A stretch of DNA of 64,000 bases from positions 372,001 to 436,000 of the forward strand of contig RSEE01000015.1 in assembly GCA_003971905.1 (NCBI GenBank), in the 5' to 3' direction. Made by a program: the position numbers and the translations under genes. Below the pieces are notes generated by a model, which saw only the letters and a program-made list of their open reading frames with translations, was not told the origin of the DNA and did no database searches. The stretch is from Moniliella sp. 'wahieum'. Taxonomy: Eukaryota. Positions 4,888 to 57,803 of the stretch are shown piece by piece (position 1 is the first letter of the stretch; the number at the start of each line of letters is the position of its first letter).

Positions 4888-4982
4888 GCTTCAATGGGTT
4901 AGTGGTATACTACATCGTTGCCAGACTGGCCTAGTGCCTGTGAGATTTCGATGTGACAGGGGTTCGATTCCCCTTTGAAGCA
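4888..4982 (+). tRNA. tRNA-Gly(GCC) with ~24-nt intron (4924-4947)
   Basis: Acceptor stem GCTTCAA/TTGAAGC+A, D-loop AGTGGT, anticodon stem CATCG/CGATG with TT-GCC-A, T-arm AGGGG-TTCGATT-CCCCT, downstream T-run. Confidence 0.9.
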
Positions 4983-30617: not shown

Positions 30618-32119
30618 ATGACTACCCTTTCTGCGCGATCCGCCCATGTGGACAAGGTCTTATCTCGCCCCGGACGTGAGTACTGCCTCTTCCTCCCGAC
30701 GATGCCCACTCGAAGCTAACGGTCGTGTGTGTCCGCCTGCTCCCAGCCTGGACCCAGGAGGGATTCAATGCTGCTGCGTACGTGTCATGCGCCTGACAAG
30801 GAGGGTGCACGCGCTAACTATTTCCCCCCACCTCAGCGCCCGACAAGCGTTGCGTGATCAAGTGCGCGTCCTGGTAATCGGTGCAGGTGGCCTGGGGTGT
30901 GAGATCCTCGCCAACCTGGCCCTGAGCGGATTCAAGGAGATCGACGTGATTGACATGGATACCATTGACATCTCCAACCTCAACCGCCAATTCCTCTTTC
31001 GTGATGCCGACGTGGGTCGGCCCAAAGCTGTAGTTGCTGCTGAGTTTGTCCAGCGCCGCGTTCCGGGGACCAAGGTGAATGCGTACGTCCCGCCTTTCTC
31101 TGCTTCGTCCATGACACCCTCCCCCGGCTGACGTGCGGCCGATTTGCCAGGTACCATGGAAAGATCCAGGACAAGCCCATCTCGTATTATGCCAAGTTTC
31201 AGTTGGTCATCTGTGGGCTGGACAGCGTGGAGGCCAGGAGGTGGATAAACAAAACGTTGGTGGGCATGACCCAGGACCATCCTGACGATCCCGACATGTT
31301 CAAAGTCCTGATTGATGGGGGCACCGAGGGATTTCGAGGGCAAGCGCGTGTGATTCTGCCGACGATCACGAGCTGCTACGAGTGCTCGCTTGATTTGCTC
31401 GGTCAGCAGATGGCGTTCCCGATCTGCACCATTGCCAATACGCCGCGGTTGCCTGAGCACTGCATTGAGTGGGCAGCGGTGCTGCAGTGGCCCAAGGAGA
31501 TGGGTGAGGATAAGAAGATTGATGGGGACGACGCTGACCAGATCAGTTGGTTGTACAACAAGGCCCTGGAGCGTGCACACGAGTTTGGCATTGATGGAGT
31601 GACCTGGTCGTTGACCCAGGGCGTAGTCAAGCGCATCATCCCAGCCATCGCATCGACCAACGCGATTGTCGCTGCGGCGTGCACACAGGAAGCGCTCAAG
31701 TTCGCCACCTCCTCCGCACCGTATCTCAACAACTACATGATGTACACTGGCAATGCGGTGTGTACACGTACACCTACCCCTACGAGAAGCGGGACGACTG
31801 TCCCGTCTGCGGCGGCACCACGCGGCAGATTCTGGCCCAACAAGGCTGGACCTTGGCTGATCTCCTGGCGTATTTGGTCGAACAGGACGACTTGGGCCTG
31901 ACCAGTCCGTCCCTGTCCACCTCGGCGGGGACGCCACTCTACTTCCAGCGGCCTTCGCCCTTGGAGGCACCGCTACGGCCCAATCTGGACAAGTGCCTGA
32001 CCGACCTGCTTGCCGCGGACCTGGGCCCAACAGAGGCTGGAGCACAGTCGGTGACAGTGTCGGTGACAGATCCCAAGTTGCCGATCCGCCTGGACGTGGA
32101 GCTGGTCTGGGCGGCGTAG
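30618..32119 (+). CDS. UBA3: NEDD8-activating enzyme E1 catalytic subunit
   Basis: [94 protein letters not shown]. Three introns, including a ~31-nt microexon. Confidence 0.95.
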
Positions 32120-32535
32120 CGGGGCCAGAAATGCATGACCGATCTGTCAGTGTTACATGTTCCGACGCTGAATGTCCGGCGCCGGCTGCGGCCACTGGCG
32201 GCGGTGTAGGCGGTGCGCGCGGTTACGTCAGCCCGCGGGGGGTGGCGGTGGGGGTAAGCGGTGTGGAGCAGGCCAGTGGGAGGCTATCCTGGGCGCACCG
32301 CAGCGGAGGAGGGGCGGCGGGGCAGGCAGCGCAGCGGACGCCGAGGTGGACACTGGCCGGGTGCCCTGTCGGCGCGGCGCGACACGTGGCAGCCCAAGTG
32401 GCGCAGACGAAGCTCCGGCCAACGCAACTGACAGGCGAGCGACCGCCGACCCCCGCCCGCCCGTCTGTTCCCATCCCCAGCCACCATCACCCACCCCCAC
32501 CCCGCCTCTCCCTCTCCTCCCGCTTACCTCTCACC

Positions 32536-33131
32536 ATGGGCGACCACATCCGCGACGAGGAGCTCCAGCCTACCCAGACCCAGGGCTTCAAGGTCGGCGA
32601 GAAGAAGACGCTCGACGAGTATACCCAGCTGGACGCCAACGACGACTCCCTCAACAAGTGGAAGGCTTCGCTCGGCATCACCGGCGACGCCAAGGCAGTC
32701 GGTGGGCCCAAGCTCACTGTTCACACCCTCGCCCTCGAGTCTCCCTCTGCCCCCGGCGGCAGCGTGCAGATCAGGCTCGATGGATCCCCCGAGGCGCTGG
32801 AGGCACTGCGCAAGCACCCTCTGTCCATCAAGGGGGCGTCGAGTACAACATTGCCATCACCTTCTCTGTCGGTGCCACCGTTCTCTCCGGGCTCAAGTAT
32901 CTCCATGTGGTCAAGCGCGCCGGTGTGACGGTGGACAAGCTGGAGGAAATGATTGGCTCCTATGGCCCTCGGTCCGAACCCTACACCAAGCGTTTCATCA
33001 CCGAGGAAGCCCCATCCGGCATGCTCGCTCGCTCCGGCACCAACATCGTCCGCAGCAGGATCATTGACGACGACGGCAATGTCTACACTGACTTTACCTG
33101 GTCGTTTAAGATTTCCAAGGAGTGGAAGTAA
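32536..33131 (+). CDS. RDI1: Rho GDP-dissociation inhibitor
   Basis: GFKVGEKKTLDEYTQLDANDDSLNKWKASLG; LSGLKYLHVVKRAG; EEAPSGMLARSG; WSFKISKEW. One indel near 32833. Confidence 0.95.
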
Positions 33132-36590: not shown

Positions 36591-36674
36591 GGGGTCCGCC
36601 CGGGATCGAACCGAGGACCACCTCTACGAGTTGAAACACCCTAAAGAGGCATGATACCACTACACCACGAACCC
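36591..36674 (-). tRNA. tRNA-Pro(AGG), 12-nt intron (36627-36638)
   Basis: Acceptor stem GGGTTCG/CGGACCC+C, anticodon arm CCTCT-TT-AGG-G[intron]T-AGAGG, GGTTCGATCC T-loop, T-run terminator. Confidence 0.93.
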
Positions 36675-39407: not shown

Positions 39408-41229
39408 ATGTCTGCCTTGGCTCGCTTAGGCCGCGTCCGTGGGAGCCCACGCCGGTCGTCGTCGCTGCTCCGCCGGCACATGCCTCGCGTCCAGCCAGCG
39501 CCCGCCTTCCTGCCGGCCGCCTGCCCAAGCCGCCGACGGGTGATGGCGTTGCGTCCGCCGTCCCCTCGCCGCTGGGCGTCTGCACCGCCGGCACCGCCTC
39601 GCCGTCTTCCCCTGCGTCGATGCAAACGCCCAGAGGGAGGCGCGCCTGCGGTCCCAGGGCCCCGTGCTCTTCGACAGCGCCCGCGCCGGCCCGGCATACC
39701 GCGATCCCGTCCTGGGAAAATGCGACGACCCAAACGCCCAACAAGGAGCCCACCTACACATCCAACCACTCGGGCTACCGCACCTACCTCCATTCCGAGC
39801 CCTACCGTCGGACTATGGCGGGATCCTGCCCCAGTTCCAAATCGCGTACGAGGGGGGAACGCTGAATGAGGCGCGAGACAATGTGGTGCTGCTCCACACG
39901 GGCTTGAGTGCCAGCTCGCATGCGGCCTCCACCGAGGCCAACCCGTCACGCGGATGGTGGGAGGACTTCCTGGGCCCAGGTAAGGCCGTGGACACCAACA
40001 AATACTTTGTCATCTGCACCAACGTCCTCGGCGGCTGCTACGGCAGCACCGGCCCCTCTTCCCCGTACCTGCTGCCGCTGGGTCCCCAGACGCCGGCGCA
40101 TGGGGCACACGCTTCCCCATCCTCAGCTTGTTTGATATGGTCCGAGCCCAGTTCTTCCTTCTGGATTCCCTCGGGATCAGCAAGGTGTATGCAAGTGTGG
40201 GCAGTAGCATGGGTGGCATGCAAAGTATTGCGGGGCCCACCTCTTCCCCGAGCGGGTGGAACGCGTGATCAGTATCAGTGGCTGTGCGCGATCGGGACCG
40301 TCGAGCGTAGCGCTGCGGTATGCGCAACGGAGCGTGATCATGGCCGATCCCAACTGGAACCAAGGCTTCTACTATGGTCCGGGCCAGATCCCTCCCCACA
40401 CAGGGATGAAGCTGGCACGACAAGTGGCCACAATAACGTATCGCAGTGGTCCGGAGTGGGAGCAGCGGTTTGGTCCGTCGTCGTCGCGCGGCCCAACCGA
40501 ACGTTTCCCCGCCGGCGGCCTTGCCTGCCATCTCGACCACCCCAGCCACCGATGCGGCGCGACTGGCGGAGCAGGAGGCGCCGTTTGAGGCGGACCCGGC
40601 CCTGTGCCCGACTTTTTGATTGAGACCTACCTTGACCACCAGGGGAATCGTTCTGCTTAAAGTACGATGCCAATTCGTTGATTTATGTGAGCAAGGCGAT
40701 GGACTTGTTGACATGAGCGACTTGTCCTGCGCGACTTGGAACGACGAAAGGAGATGCGGCGCAAGATTGAAGAGGGCATGCCGTCGGAGCAAGCCCTGGC
40801 GGAGATGCAACGACAAGCCGAGCAGGACGACGCGGATGAAGACGAGGGTGGGACCAAACCCTCTCCCGCTCTTCGTCGCGCGTACACGCCGCCAACACAT
40901 ATCCACCATTACCTCCCCCGCTGCTCATGCATATGTTCCTGCCTTGGCCCGCGGCCTGGCCAACTTGCGTACCAAACCCACCCTTATCATTGGCGTCCAG
41001 TCCGATGTGCTCTTCCCCGTCGGCCAACAACGTGAACTCGCCGAATGTCTCCGCATGATTGGAAACGACAGGGTCAGCTACTACGAGCTCGACGCGCCGT
41101 ACGGCCACGATAGTTTCCTGTATGTACTTCCCCCCTTCCCCCTGCCTCATTGGTGGGTATCCTGCTGACCCAGTCTCTAGACTCGACGTGGCCTCGGTTG
41201 GCACGACCGTACGTGGTTTCTTGGGCTGA
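39408..41229 (+). CDS. Homoserine O-acetyltransferase-family enzyme, Cys2/CysA-type serine O-acyl(succinyl)transferase
   Basis: [102 protein letters not shown]. Presequence-like N-terminus. Confidence 0.88.
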
Positions 41230-41314
41230 ATCATCTATCTCGTTGGCTACGACTCGCATTGGGACAGAGCATGGGGTATCTAATAGTCGTCCAACAATGT
41301 CGCATCGTGCGGCC

Positions 41315-43045
41315 CTAGTTCGCTGAGCCAAGGCAGGGGAAAATCTTCTTGCAAACCAACCAACTCTCCTCGGGATCAGCCTTGGCATCGGGTAGTTCGG
41401 CTTCCAGCAGCTCCTCCATAGCGTGCATGTAGACCTCCTGTTCCTCTTCGGAGCGAGGTAACCTTCCATCTCATCGGGCTGGAACAAGACCTGGTCCAGT
41501 TCGTCGGGGGCAGCTTGTCCAACGCGGCCCAATTGGTGATTCCGCGCAACGAGGCAACACTCGGCTTGGGCGCGGGCTGCGGGCTGGTCGGACGTGGGGG
41601 GCAAACAAGGAACCGACAAGATGGAGGGAACTTGTCCTCGCGCGCGCTGTTCCGAGAGACGACACGAAACGATAGCTGGCGCGTACCGGATCAGATCGGA
41701 CCGCGAAAGCGAAAGCGAAAGTGTACCGGTCGGTGGTGTTGGGCACAGCAGCTGGCCGACTCGGTTTGGGTTGTCCAGAACGAATCACGACCGCGCACCT
41801 TGGTCCGTTGGACCCGAGCCGCGCAGGCGTCGGATGCACCCAGGGCAGTCCCACGGCAGCTGCGCGAAGCGAGCGGAGTGTAGCAGTTGCGATTTCTTCA
41901 GTACGCTGAACGTTACCGGTCGTTCCTCCGGCCCGAGAGAGAAGCGAAGAAATCGACTCGGCTGAAGGAGCGGTGATGAGGAGGTTCATCAGCTCGGTCA
42001 TGGGCTCGCGTTGGAGCGGATGACCATGACATACTTCAAGCGCGAGCCCGAGACAGCTCAATGCGGACGTAAGAGGATCGCGCCGAAATGCAACGGGTTC
42101 CATGCCAGGCGAAGAACCAAGCCCGGACCCAAAGAGTTCCGCCAAGTCCATAGCTAGCGACTCGGCTCGTGCTAGGTCCATACCAGCTACCACCTCAGTA
42201 GCCGACACGAGCCCGGAAGCCGCCCGACGCGTGCGTTTTCGCGCTGGAGACGAAAGCGTACCCTGCACCGCCTTTAGCCGGGTAACGATCCCGGGAATCT
42301 CCGTACGCGGGTCGAGCGTGGCAGAACGGGGAAAAGTGGGTGTAGATATACGTGAGGAGGAGATACTTGGCCTGGATGTTGTACGCACTCGTCTCGGCCA
42401 CTACGGCCAAAGGGTCAAGCGGAACCCAGTGGTTGTGCTGGTACAGCAGGGCAAATACAGCGGCAGCAAAAGCGCGTTGCCGTGACCCTGGATGCCCCAC
42501 GGAGCTTAGCATGAACAAGGGCGTGCGTGGCTTGGGGCGGCAGGCTGCTGTCGGTTAGCACAGGACGTCGTCGCGGCGGCACTCAAACGGGCCACAATCG
42601 ATTCCTCTATCTTGACCTCGGTTGTCGTGCCAGATTCGGTCCGAACAGACGATAGGCCGTCTTGCCTTTCGTCCCGCGCGCGCACTCGAGCACCATGCGT
42701 TCCGCCTGCGTCTGGAGCGCGGGCGAAAGCGATCCGCCCACCGCCGGCACACGCGCAGCGAGGCGGCCGATGATCTGGCGGATTTGCGTCGCAGCATCGG
42801 CATGTGGAACGAGGAGACGTACTGGGTACGCGCCCAGGTACGCGTGCGGAACTGGGACGAGGCCAGCACGCCCCCCACGCCCACAGGAGCGACTTGGCGA
42901 GTGCCCGTGCCGTACTGGGCGTCAAACGCGGCTCGTACTCGGTGCGCTCGAGAAAGAAGCCGCATGCGGGGCAACCGAATTGCCCTCCTCGTGCACCAGA
43001 GCGGGGTGGTCAACGCACAGCGGCAGCAGCTGCCGTGCAGCTAGG
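41315..43045 (-). CDS. Divergent TFIIB-family protein (Zn ribbon, cyclin-like region, Brf-type TBP anchor); start uncertain
   Basis: Reframed CVDHPALVHEEGNSVCPACG; RAFAAAVFALLYQHNHWVPLDPLAVVAETSAYNIQAKYLLL; LFQPDEMEGYLRSEEEQEVY. The first and last motifs each need one indel corrected. Confidence 0.55.
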
Positions 43046-45751: not shown

Positions 45752-45883
45752 GGTAGTTGCCCACAACCAGGCTGGCTAGGAAGCGTATGTCGGCGTAGGA
45801 GCAAAAGTGGCCACTCCATCTGTTCAATTGTGCAAACAACCATCGCGTCCCCCCTCGCAACCTACGCGGGATCCGAAAAAAAT

Positions 45884-45968
45884 GGGGTCCGCCCGGGATC
45901 GAACCGAGGACCACCTCTACCAGGTATTAGAACCCTAAAGAGGCATGATACCACTACACCACGAACCC
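45884..45968 (-). tRNA. tRNA-Pro(AGG), 13-nt intron (45920-45932)
   Basis: Exons identical to the copy at 36591-36674; different intron; T-run terminator. Confidence 0.93.
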
Positions 45969-46371
45969 CTGTTGTTTTGCCTCTGCGAGTTTGTTATTTG
46001 ATTCAGACACTACACTTAATCTTTGCCAACACGCCGTCCTCCCATCGATCAGGCACTTCATCAAGCTTATATAGATCCCATACCTTAGCTTCCCTGCCTT
46101 GCCTTCTTCTTCAGAGGTCTCGGACAAGATCTATCGCCACCCTCCACGGCTATATCACCTATGGTCTGATGTAGTGTGCCGCTTTTACAGACGGCATCGT
46201 GTGATCATAGGAGTACAACAAACGCATCGGGCGTTACTTGGTGCGGGACAGACTTGTGGAGTAGCGTGGAGAGAGGAAACGAGGGAAGAAAAGGAAGAAA
46301 GGGAGGGAGGAAGGCACAGAAAGGGGGGATCACCCCACCGCTTCCAACCGAGCTAGTACCTCATCAAACAC

Positions 46372-53780: not shown

Positions 53781-55510
53781 AAGCCTACCACATTCTTCTC
53801 TCTTGTTCCGACGAGTCGTTAACCCTTAGGTACGGTTACAATAATACACAAAGGCATTCTTCAATAGTGAAGCCATTCAAACAGCCTCGTTTTACCTCTT
53901 TCGGGCGTAACCTCAGGCCGCATCTTGGCAAGGGTGAGTGATGGGGGTTCTGCGGGCCACTGCATCAGTTCAACGTTCATGGGATGAGAGCTCTGTAGCC
54001 TGTTCTGCGCTGAGACACCTGACCATGCACCGGAGTGTGGCACGGCGAAAAACAAACCATCGTGTGGCGGAGGACATTGTCTCTCTCCTTCGTTGCAACC
54101 GAGGGCAGGCTCTTTGAAGTTTGAAGCTTGAAGAGAGGTCTACAGGGACCTGACGCTGGCTTTATTTTACTGTGAGAGGCTCAGGTGGATTCACGCACTG
54201 TGTCGTATAGTAACAGCTCTCACGCCATCCGTCCGTCTGTCGGATGTGAATAGAATTTTGAATCGACTCGGGCCGAGGCGAGGCCACTGGATAGGACGGT
54301 CGCGTACCTGTCGCTGATGAGGGAGCCACCTTTGTGCGTGTGGTAGCAGGTGCGGTAGAGGTGTACTAGGTACTAGCGACCAAGTGAGTTTACAGATGGT
54401 TACGTTGACCACTGCAGGACGTACGTACTGTGGAGTAGACGGAGCAGGGTATATAAAAACGACTGCGGCAGAACGCGTCGCTATTATAGGCAGCAGACCC
54501 AGCGTGACGTGACTCTCCCGAGCCGTTGAAATTTTTTGACATGGGGCCGAGGGCCGCAAAGGTGCCTGTCCCTGTCGGTCCTAACGCTGGGAGAAGAGCA
54601 CGCGGCGCCGATGGTTGCCTGGGCGCCTGAGCGGCCAGACACCCTCCCGCCTGCGTATTGCATGCGCTCCGTTGGTGCCCCACCGAGACACGAAACCGGT
54701 GCTGTTTCCGGTGCCTGTGCCGGGGCCGCGGCCAAGGAGAGCGAGTGGATGGGTGTGGGTGGTTTGTGCTGCGTCATGGATGGGGGGGTGCACATGGGCT
54801 GGGGGGTGGGAGAGACGAGGGGGAGGGTGGCACTGCAGCGGTGTCCTATCTCGTCCCGACCGGGCAGGCGTGTCTTACTGGAGGTTGTATGTTGCCTGGG
54901 TGCGAGGTGAGGGCGTGGGGGAGGCCAGCGGGGCATATTGGCAACGCGTAGCAAATCGCCCCGCCGGGCACTGGGGTGGGGCTGCCGCGTGGCGGCCGGT
55001 GGCTACTGGATGGGTACAACCTGCTCGCAGCCGCCGGCGGGCAGGCGGGCGAACGCCTGCCGTGGCTTCGTCATGGACAGGCGGTGGTGGTGCGCTGAGG
55101 CGCTCGCAGCTGCGCTGGTGCTCGGCCCACCGCAAAGGTCCTCATATTTCACGACGCTGCCAATTTGGATGGCGACCTGGGATGTACCATTTCGGGTGCT
55201 TTTCTCCGGTGCAACGCCTCTTTGGCGGCTGCCTGCCCGTCTCCTGTGCCGTCGACGCCGTGCCTGGGCGCCGCCATGCGCTCGTCTCCTTTCTGCCCTG
55301 CTGTCCCAGGCCAGTGTCGCGGCCAGTAAGCGATAAAAAAAGCGTTGTGCCTGCATTAGTAGTATCTGCTGGCGCACCCACTACCACGGTCGTGTTTTTG
55401 CACACAGGAGTACCCGCACTCCCATATAACCCTCCCCCTTCCTCCCCCACCTCGTGTTCACCCCCGCCCCCAGCTCTCTCTCCGCTTTCGCATCCTCCCG
55501 CGCCTCCACC

Positions 55511-56661
55511 ATGTCCGACGCCTCTGATGCCTGCAGCAAAGACCCGCCCTATGCCGGCAGCATCGGCCTCCGAATCGGCTCCATCTTCATCATCCTAGCC
55601 ACCTCCCTCTTTGCCACCATGTTCCCCGTCGTCACCAAACGCGTGCCCCACGTCAACATCCCCATGTGGGCCTACGACATTTGCCGTTACTTTGGTTCGG
55701 GCGTCATCTTGGCCACCGCCTTTATGCATCTACTTCAGCCTGCGTCCGAAGAGCTTGGATCGCCCTGCCTCAACTCCACCTTCCAAGGCTACCCGTTCGC
55801 CTTCCTCTTCTGCCTCCTCTCTGCTCTGTACGTGCGACCGATCCTCCTTTCTCGCATACCCGCACAGTGTGTACGGCCGCACTAACTCCTGGTCACCCAT
55901 CACAGCCTCATCTTCCTCATCGAAATGCTCGCCTTCCGCTGGGGCATGAAGCTCGCAGATAAACTGGCATACGACCCGCACCAAGGTGGACACCACCATG
56001 CCACCGAGCACATCAACCCGCCCATTGCACCCATTGGCGAGTACACTTCGTCGCCCAGGCAGCAGCCTGACGTGCTGGAGAAGACGGACAAGATGTCCGA
56101 CGAAGAGAACTGGGTCGTGAGTGCACACGATGCTGATTCGGAGCAGACCGAGGCACTGTCGGGAGTGGTGCGTCGCAAATCATTGGTGTGGCCATCCTCG
56201 AGTTTGGTGTCATCTTCCACTCGGTCATCATTGGTCTTACCCTCGGTTCTTCCAGCTCCCAAAGCGACTTTATTACTCTCTTCATTGTCATCATCTTTCA
56301 CCAAATGTTTGAAGGGTTGGGTCTTGGCGTCCGTCTGGCATTTTTGCCTCTTGAAAAGAATTCGTGGATCCCCTTCCTGGGCGCATTGGCCTACCCGTGC
56401 GTCACGCCCATTGGCGAGGCGATCGGGTTGGGTCTGCGCCACACGTACAATGGCAACAGTGCCACGGCCAACTACGTCGAGGGCACACTCGATTCCATCT
56501 CGGCGGGCATTCTGTGCTACACGGCCTTTGTCGAGCTGATTGCCCATGACTTTATATTTAACGACAAGATGCGCAAGGCACCCATCTGGCTGCTCACCCT
56601 CGACATCTTTTATGTCTTCCTCGGCGCAGGCTTGATGGCACTCTTGGCGAAATGGGCCTAA
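55511..56661 (+). CDS. ZIP-family zinc/iron transporter (Zrt1/Zrt2-like)
   Basis: LRIGSIFIIL, YFGSGVILATAFMHLL, His-rich loop GGHHHATEH, ILEFGVIFHSVIIGLTLG, FHQMFEGLGLG, DSISAGIL, MALLAKWA. Intron 55828-55905. Confidence 0.95.
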
Positions 56662-57731: not shown

Positions 57732-57803
57732 TGGACGAACAGGGAATTGAACCCCGGACCTCATGCATGCTAAGCAAGCGCTCTACCCCTGAGCTATCCG
57801 CCC
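57732..57803 (-). tRNA. tRNA-Ala(AGC), intronless
   Basis: GGGCGGATAGCTCAGGGGTAGAGCG-CTTGC-TTAGCAT-GCATG...GGTTCAATTCC...TCGTCCA, with a G3:U70 pair and a T-run terminator. Confidence 0.93.

Follow-up and report, generated by a model that had tools for sequence, protein, structure and literature searches.

A TFIIB-related gene of Moniliella sp. 'wahieum' with a predicted C-terminal module ordered as in Brf2

A stretch of 64,000 nucleotides from Moniliella sp. 'wahieum' (contig RSEE01000015.1, positions 372,001 to 436,000; hereafter the window) encodes a putative TFIIB-related protein, which may be a Brf2-like initiation factor of RNA polymerase III (Pol III), an identity for which the sequence evidence is about evenly poised. 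No current profile names this protein, and its tail carries a predicted Brf-type TBP anchor whose elements are ordered as in Brf2 and not as in Brf1. The product is provisionally described as a TFIIB-related initiation factor that evolves fast and is about 570 residues long, a description placed midway between acceptance and doubt. All positions follow the numbering of the 64-kb window, and the gene is read on the minus strand throughout.

The longest unbroken piece of the gene (41471-42400, 309 aa) has only two phmmer matches among 1.84 billion cluster representatives, namely P0001 (574 aa, E 1.2e-36) and P0002 (702 aa, E 6.2e-15), both of which come from Logan assemblies only; three more intact 574-aa variants of P0001 exist, each differing by 1-3 residues. 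A protein-to-DNA alignment allowing frameshifts, which replaced a plain tblastn that ran through wrong frames, maps P0001 residues 7 to about 570 onto 43023-41304, where 319 of 541 codons are identical (59%), while the corresponding figure for P0002 is 265 of 533 (50%). Pairwise identity among the three family members is 42-59%, with P0001 and P0002 sharing 42%. The gene is delimited as follows.

41280..43043, minus strand: TFIIB-like gene, conceptual coding region (frameshift-aware alignment to P0001/P0002, three-frame translation, peptide coordinates)

The C-terminal module and its resemblance to Brf2

The sequence features that carry the predicted relationship with Brf2 lie in the C-terminal region.

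41668..41697, minus strand: arch-like motif DLIRYAPAIV (BRF2 arch pattern)
41505..41561, minus strand: conserved block SVASLRGITNWAALDKLPP, ending LPP (fully or almost fully conserved where P0001 and P0002 are aligned)
41396..41502, minus strand: TBP-anchor-like acidic motif ELDQVLFQPDEMEGYL-(R)-SEEEQEVYMHAMEELLEAE (BRF2 anchor columns, Brf1 region II rows)
41283..41395, minus strand: acidic C-terminal tail, ending DFPLPWLSELGPHDATLLDDY (41345-41283), aligned with ELIGFVDDFPFPLWSTDVGLPAED of P0001; frame change near 41368

The reference for comparison consists of seven BRF2 rows, from human, chicken, Xenopus, zebrafish, coelacanth, amphioxus and sea urchin, taken from PMC7221094 (supplement 4). 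After the second repeat these rows share the motif [LIV][PA]W[VL], which ends cyclin II in all seven orthologues, the arch D-[IL]-L-[QKRH]-[HY], the pin [LIF]LPP and the anchor S-E-[IL]-x-x-Y-[IL]-R-[STG]-x-x-E-[IVM]-x-x-[FV] (PMC7221094). According to Gouge 2015 (PMC4671959), the Brf2 arch (residues 291-314) contacts SNAPc, the pin (residues 357-363, LPPC, with the redox Cys 361) lies at the TBP/DNA interface, and the anchor (residues 374-419) occupies the convex face of TBP like region II of Brf1. The equivalent segments of the fungal family are listed below.

End of cyclin II: P0001 GLPWL; P0002 ALDWV; window GLPWV
Arch-like: P0001 DLIKHA; P0002 DLIRYA; window DLIRYA
Pin-like: P0001 ALPPD; P0002 RLPDD; window KLPP
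Anchor-like: P0001 GEVEGYFRSADEQEAY; P0002 GELDGYLRSPEAQKAY; window DEMEGYL-SEEEQEVY

The comparison with BRF2 used column-class patterns derived from the BRF2 columns only, with motif borders set after viewing the family, so that the shuffle figures given here are somewhat optimistic. The arch-like motif (DLI[KR][HY]A..[IV]V) scores 22.4 in P0001 and 20.9 in P0002, values reached by 0 and 2 of 1000 shuffles, respectively; in a scan of the whole window in six frames (127,996 residues), the gene's own copy at 41697-41668 obtains the top arch score. The anchor-like motif scores 21.6 in P0001 and 25.2 in P0002 (reached by 4 and 0 of 1000 shuffles), and no other site in the same six frames reaches either orthologue's anchor score. 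The motif ending cyclin II in P0001 has a score reached by 18 of 1000 shuffles. When the four motifs are scored with BLOSUM averages as one collinear chain, P0001 obtains 79.5 against 39.4 +/- 5.6 for its shuffles and P0002 obtains 70.2 against 40.9 +/- 5.2, where none of 1000 shuffles reaches either value, and the best chain falls on homologous sites in the two proteins.

The anchor-like motif of the window is cut by a frame change at 41454-41453, exactly at the codon where the orthologues have Arg: ELDQVLFQPDEMEGYL occupies 41502-41455 and SEEEQEVY... continues from 41452. The dipeptide in Y-phi-R-S and the aromatic residue at +10 agree with the BRF2 rows and not with the Brf1 rows, which have Y/H-phi-L-N and Trp at +14. 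From the anchor Tyr to the C-terminus there are 52-65 residues in the family and about 58 in the window, so an anchor close to the protein end, as in Brf2, is present as a sequence motif. The original prediction had placed this motif only about 40 aa ahead of an apparent stop at 41315; the last 21 residues match the orthologue tail in the third frame, and the stop is therefore the TAG at 41282-41280 in that frame. Between the arch-like and anchor-like motifs lies the best-conserved C-terminal stretch of all three members, PS-[IV]-A-[AS]-L-R-G-I-x-x-W-A-x-L-x-x-L-P (P0001 487-505), for which neither the seven BRF2 rows nor the Brf1 rows show an equivalent.

Look-alikes in the ESM Atlas, obtained as 30 hits each for P0001 and P0002, point in the same direction as the motifs. 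The first hit of P0001 is a chordate BRF2 cluster ('TFIIIB 50 kDa subunit'; score 0.92, 191 of 256 features, PF21886 on 88% of members), followed by a plant cluster with PF21886, another BRF2 cluster and nine hits to Basidiomycota clusters (589 aa, PF00382 on 25%). For P0002, the plant cluster with PF21886 ranks first, Basidiomycota clusters of 642 and 589 aa take ranks 2 and 3, and chordate BRF2 is fourth (0.91). Clusters of Brf1 (0.84-0.87), viral TFIIB and Asgard proteins score lower, at 0.84-0.88 overall. The sets listed with the 30 hits of each protein include no Rrn7 set. The Brf2-like reading is preferred because these look-alikes agree with arch-like and anchor-like motifs standing in the Brf2 order.

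If this reading is correct, the protein would consist of a four-Cys ribbon, two much-diverged cyclin repeats, each with an insert, and, at the C-terminus, a Brf-type module arranged as in Brf2, where an arch-like helix is followed by the LPP block, the acidic E-phi-x-x-Y-phi-R-S motif and the protein end. It would act as the TFIIB-like subunit of a TFIIIB-type complex, whose ribbon and reader would reach into the polymerase and whose cyclin repeats would sit on TBP and DNA beside the TATA box. The anchor motif may wrap the convex face of TBP, as do Brf1 region II and the Brf2 anchor domain, and the arch-like helix could touch an upstream factor, as the Brf2 arch touches SNAPc. Such a factor would serve gene-external, TATA-dependent Pol III promoters such as that of U6, beside a canonical Brf1.

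Zinc ribbon, putative cyclin repeats and kinship with TFIIB

The N-terminal and central features of the gene are as follows.

42959..43025, minus strand: N-terminal zinc ribbon (C)PLC ... CPAC-G (orthologue alignment, profile matches; frame changes near 43023 and 42975)
42819..42926, minus strand: conserved block FDAQYGTGTRQ ... WARTQY in the B-reader/B-linker place (78% identity to P0001, alignment A2)
42363..42783, minus strand: putative first cyclin repeat (placed by hhalign on the TFB block GRS...ALYAACR...PR.L.EI)
41837..42316, minus strand: putative second cyclin repeat (hhalign pairing with TFB)

The three peptides from which the original prediction proceeded are all found on the minus strand near their expected places, as PLCVDHP (43023-43003) with CPACG (42973-42959), AAAVFALLYQHNHWVPLDPLAVVAETSAYNIQAKY and ELDQVLFQPDEMEGYL, and they join only across indels, there being 17 frame changes relative to P0001 between 43023 and 41304. 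Its zinc ribbon is retained, although the C-x2-H knuckle described for it proves to be a frame artefact, composed of the second Cys of the first knuckle and a chance His; the true pattern is C-x2-C...C-x2-C. The orthologue ribbons read CPLC-x14-CHTCG and CPLC-x14-CLECG, and the first Cys codon of the window (TGC, 43025-43023) is one base out of frame with PLC. The ribbon is assigned four cysteines because both orthologues start with M-x4-CPLC; the four-Cys ribbon of the TFIIB-like superfamily is thus found in P0001 and P0002, and in the window when one frame change is allowed. The ribbon of TFB, 1pft, is the top PDB match of the family profile (E 0.067-0.073, profiles A3 and A4), and the AF2 model of the region shows three short strands with pLDDT 62-70.

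For a more sensitive comparison by hhalign, a set of archaeal TFBs was assembled by finding genomes through a 16S primer pattern and genes through PF00382, which yielded 15 distinct translated TFBs. The whole family matches this set with Prob 90.0% and 91.6% (scores 54.2 and 56.4; profiles A4 and A3, respectively), while 40 column shuffles stay at or below 0.7% Prob and a score of 21.0, and reversing the family gives a score of 14.7. The alignment extends over 252-255 columns, along which the ribbon, helices 3-5 of cyclin I and helices 1-3 of cyclin II remain collinear with TFB. Residues 1-79, which comprise ribbon and reader, match with Prob 94.9% (score 51.0, E 4.8e-8), and the block FDAQYGTGTRQ ... 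WARTQY lies inside this N-terminal match.

In the putative first repeat, helix 1 corresponds to IRQIIGRLAARVPAVG (42783-42736) and is followed by an insert of about 50 residues, while helices 3-5 comprise WGIQGHGNAL / AAAVFALLYQHNHWVPLDPLAVVAETSAYNIQAKY (42499-42363, with AAAVFALLYQHNHWVPLDPLAVVAETSAYNIQAKY at 42467-42363). The second repeat, likewise putative, is made up of LDPRTEIPG (42316-42290), FRRDPLTSALSCLGLALEVC (42088-42029), APSAES (41971-41954) and, at its end, GLPWV (41851-41837), where hhalign pairs LDPRTEIPG with DP..YVPRF of TFB and RRDPLT.AL with GKSP...AAA. The match to 15 archaeal TFBs bears out the predicted membership in the TFIIB family, which appears well supported through ribbon and reader, and the cyclin repeats are weakly indicated as a feature of this superfamily by their collinearity.

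Several results weigh against these assignments, in addition to the optimism of the shuffle figures. The core alone (residues 80-420) matches TFB with only Prob 2.7% (score 24.6, P 0.017; 40 shuffles reach at most 18.3), so the predicted cyclin core, which is collinear with TFB in the whole-protein alignment, is only weakly detectable by itself, and the C-terminal region (400-574) matches nothing, with Prob 0.1% and a score of 10.4, which is expected for TFB. TFIIB kinship is accordingly carried mainly by ribbon and reader, as the split signal comes mostly from residues 1-79. No internal repeat is seen in the core, where cyclin I against cyclin II gives an hhalign Prob of 0.3%. Neither P0001, P0002 nor any of 7 window pieces matches a Pfam-A family, including PF00382, PF08271, PF07741 and PF21886, at E up to 10 (hmmscan), and BRF2 and Brf1 chains are absent from the PDB matches of both the whole-protein profile and the tail. 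Strict class counting is marginal for each motif (p 0.016 to 0.07): the arch obtains 7 of 10 with p about 0.06 in both P0001 and P0002, the anchor 10 of 19 with p 0.016 in P0002, and in P0001 the anchor is not the top site. The pin pattern ([LIF]LPP[C]) does not rise above shuffles (155 and 935 of 1000), and the redox Cys after LPP is absent in all three members, P0001 having Asp; the sea urchin and amphioxus BRF2 rows likewise lack the pin Cys (PMC7221094). Spacings also differ, as about 41 residues separate the cyclin II Trp from the arch (17-19 in BRF2) and about 10 separate LPP from the anchor (15-27 in BRF2). The ESM recognition values, 2032 and 1924, fall below 2300, the level from which this tool regards a high score as strong evidence.

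Other searches were uninformative. Sequence matches in the PDB for P0001, the 71-aa tail of P0002 and the window cyclin I piece are chance ones only (PsbX, AraC, HigB and a histidine triad protein), and the two AF2 models (pLDDT 35.5 and 37.6) are too low in confidence to show a cyclin fold, because relatives are too few. Homologue searches with P0001, profile A3 and P0001 region 183-420 returned only P0001 itself, which means little because even P0002 did not return, while two metagenome scans gave 303 and 215 pattern matches with none confirmed.

Gene reconstruction and the state of the locus

The TFIIB-like locus is a real and probably functional gene of a GC-rich fungus (56-69% GC across the window), and its interruptions in the assembly are probably many single-base errors. 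Its minus-strand translation switches repeatedly among three frames between about 43043 and 41280, with 17 frame changes against P0001 and 15 against P0002, and none of the codons aligned with P0001 is a stop. The alignment with P0001 contains no intron-sized gap. A suspected intron at 42616-42549 (GT...CTAAC...AG) was rejected, as the stretch aligns as coding with P0001. At the 5' end, the lack of an in-frame ATG reported in the original prediction is borne out, as there is no ATG between 43229 and 43023, nor one within 200 nt upstream of the expected start. A TAG at 43043-43041 in a CCACC context lies within one codon of the start Met position of both orthologues; it may be a miscalled start codon.

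The frame breaks are likely assembly errors rather than decay, because neighbouring housekeeping genes are broken in the same manner. A gene for a Met2-like homoserine O-acetyltransferase (39850-41130, plus strand), convergent with the TFIIB-like gene, has its conserved blocks in at least 3 frames, with at least 5 frame changes in about 1.4 kb, and two of these changes, after ...STGPSSP and in a stretch that includes LFPERVERV, lie inside contiguous conserved sequence that leaves no room for introns. A Rho_GDI domain (32551-33122, plus strand) is split at 32829-32844 between overlapping open reading frames (ORFs) in different frames, which cover profile positions 4-101 and 97-193. The split Rho_GDI domain, taken with the interrupted ThiF and ZIP domains described below, suggests indel errors across the whole window, where the longest stop-to-stop ORF in 64 kb has 454 aa.

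The opposite view, that the frameshifts are genuine and this locus a pseudogene, only recently inactivated, of such a factor, is considered very improbable. It would account for the missing start ATG and for 17 frame changes in 1.74 kb, which amount to 1 per 100 nt against about 1 per 250 nt in the Met2-like neighbour, and a small probability is kept for it because of this higher density, a point that also weighs against the gene as reconstructed here. Against it stand the absence of stops in 541 aligned codons, an even 59% identity over the full length and the breakage of conserved housekeeping genes in the same window. Tracking frames by codon-position GC recovered 1 of the 17 known switches and has no resolving power for the window-wide frameshift density.

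Elsewhere in the window, a ThiF domain (30841-31898, plus strand) is split at profile position 101/102 by a 66-nt gap, which may be an intron or a frameshift, and the longest ORF (30861-32222, minus strand) runs antisense to this ThiF/E2_bind gene and has no Pfam match. A ZIP transporter gene (55430-56658, plus strand) is fragmented, profile positions 88-170 being missing between two ORFs. A tRNA-Ala(AGC) gene (57732-57803, minus strand) is reported by both tRNA finders (ARAGORN and Rfam). Those of tRNA-Lys(TTT) (84 nt, 36591-36674, minus strand) and tRNA-Lys(CTT) (87 nt, 45883-45969, minus strand) are reported by ARAGORN only, and a 95-nt tRNA (4888-4982, plus strand) by Rfam only; the lengths of these finder-specific tRNAs suggest intron-containing genes.

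Alternative identities and comparison with known systems

Three other identities compete with a Brf2-like factor. The protein may be a divergent Brf1, either the sole Pol III TFIIB-like factor of these fungi or a lineage-specific duplicate, which has been shortened and come to resemble Brf2 by convergence. The anchor motif is indeed common to Brf1 region II, where the yeast and human rows read D-x-E-[IL]-x-x-[YH]-[IL]-L-N-E, and these rows also carry a Trp ahead of the cyclin II G-R-R-P, as do the BRF2 rows (PMC7221094); the structural likeness of the Brf2 anchor to Brf1 region II, as described by Gouge 2015 (PMC4671959), and the ESM scores of Brf1 clusters also fit. This identity is nevertheless judged unlikely, as PF00382 and PF07741 are both without match, the residues following the anchor Tyr are those of BRF2, the protein ends soon after the anchor, an arch-like motif is present and BRF2 clusters outrank those of Brf1. 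That the protein is too divergent for a canonical TFIIB (Sua7) or Brf1, as first proposed, agrees with the failure of PF00382, PF08271 and PF07741 to match even at E 10. The protein might alternatively be the lineage's orthologue of Rrn7/TAF1B, the subunit of the Pol I core factor / SL1 that resembles TFIIB; its sequence would then have diverged too far for the Pfam models of Rrn7 to recognise. Its size (574-702 aa), the inserts in both cyclin repeats, the long conserved C-terminal region and the very fast evolution seen in 42-59% identity would suit Rrn7, and even the absence of a Pfam match would be expected of such a protein. The same absence also counts against it: the Pfam-A scan at E up to 10 gives no Rrn7 model for P0001 or P0002, nor any TFIIB-related family, which lowers the case for Rrn7 but does not exclude it, because Rrn7 evolves fast. 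As no Rrn7 set is listed among the ESM hits, and arch-like and Brf-type anchor motifs are significant and stand in the Brf2 order, orthology with Rrn7 seems improbable. Rrn7 is not known to have a TBP anchor of Brf type.

It is also conceivable, though unlikely, that the family forms a separate, undescribed TFIIB-like clade of Basidiomycota, whose polymerase and targets could not be predicted from Brf2 and whose tail motifs would reflect an acidic TBP-binding peptide of a general kind. The ESM hits include eight to nine Basidiomycota clusters of 589-642 aa, with PF00382 on 20-25% of their members, whose scores are as high as those of BRF2. The family is assigned by no profile, and both the spacings and the conserved block before LPP are unlike those of BRF2. 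Such a clade would leave unexplained that arch and anchor, two separate Brf2 motifs, match in the right order and place, and that the nearest named families are BRF2 clusters.

The Brf2-like assignment itself, as originally predicted, thus stands in part: arch-like and anchor-like motifs follow the Brf2 order, the protein ends soon after them and chordate BRF2 clusters rank first or fourth in ESM, while PF21886 is unmatched and the pin Cys is lacking. Its acceptance would bear on the history of Brf2, which Gouge 2015 (PMC4671959) describes as confined to vertebrates and missing from plants and fungi, a distribution on which that paper builds an evolutionary argument. The BRF2 alignment of PMC7221094 extends only to deuterostome invertebrates, and no report of a fungal Brf2 was found in the searchable literature; Pfam PF21886 is already named 'BRF2-like' and sits on plant proteins according to the ESM table. 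A plant review (PMC7865254) puts the usual number of TFIIB-related proteins in eukaryotes other than plants at three or four. As a tentative proposal, which we hold to be doubtful, basidiomycetes may keep an ancient Brf2-type factor together with a system of gene-external (type 3-like) Pol III promoters, where the arch might have a SNAPc-like partner; the support for such a factor is at the level of motifs and a language model. If true, Brf2 would predate animals and would have been lost in the textbook yeasts rather than invented in vertebrates for redox control, and the Asp at the pin position would make the redox switch a later animal addition. A real fungal factor of this type would mean a second route of Pol III initiation in fungi outside the model yeasts, the origin of Brf2 would move far back in time, and the question could be tested in basidiomycetes that are amenable to genetics. 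Attention is also drawn to a whole set of Basidiomycota proteins that current profiles leave unnamed, in ESM clusters of 589 and 642 aa.

Among known systems, Brf2 (TFIIIB50; structure 4ROC) is the TFIIB-related factor through which Pol III serves type 3 promoters in animals. The fungal family resembles it in the N-terminal C4 ribbon, the putative two-repeat core, the [L][P]W[VL] that closes cyclin II, the arch-like D-[IL]-[IL]-[KR]-[HY] motif followed by an LPP block, and the anchor E-phi-x-x-Y-phi-R-[ST]-x-x-E with an aromatic residue at +10 and the protein end soon after, and Brf2 is its nearest named family in ESM feature space. The family differs from Brf2 in its length (574-702 aa against 419), in the inserts within its two putative repeats (about 50 and 25-60 residues), in the lack of a PF21886 or PF00382 match and of a Cys after LPP, in its spacings, in the block PS-x-A-A-L-R-G-I-x-x-W, which has no counterpart in the BRF2 rows, and in its occurrence in fungi, a group from which Gouge 2015 (PMC4671959) calls Brf2 absent.

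With Brf1 the family shares the ribbon, the two repeats (putative in the fungal family) and an acidic anchor motif, D-x-E-[IL]-x-x-[YH]-[IL], after an L-P-containing stretch. It departs from Brf1 in that PF00382 and PF07741 do not match, R-S and not L-N follows the anchor Tyr, the aromatic residue stands at +10 in place of Trp at +14, and only 52-65 residues remain past the Tyr. Brf1 (TFIIIB70/90) is the general TFIIB-related factor of Pol III, whose region II is seen bound to TBP in 1NGM, and it continues into a further conserved region after region II. Rrn7 is of similar size to the fungal family and likewise has inserts in its cyclin repeats, an extended C-terminal domain and a fast rate of evolution. 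The extended C-terminal domain of Rrn7/TAF1B is also noted in the review PMC7865254; the fungal tail differs from it in carrying Brf-type motifs, and the Rrn7 Pfam models and listed ESM sets are without match. Archaeal TFB is matched by the fungal family profile with Prob 90-92% from the ribbon through the third helix of the second repeat, while the family extends beyond both TFB and TFIIB by a C-terminal region of 170 residues.

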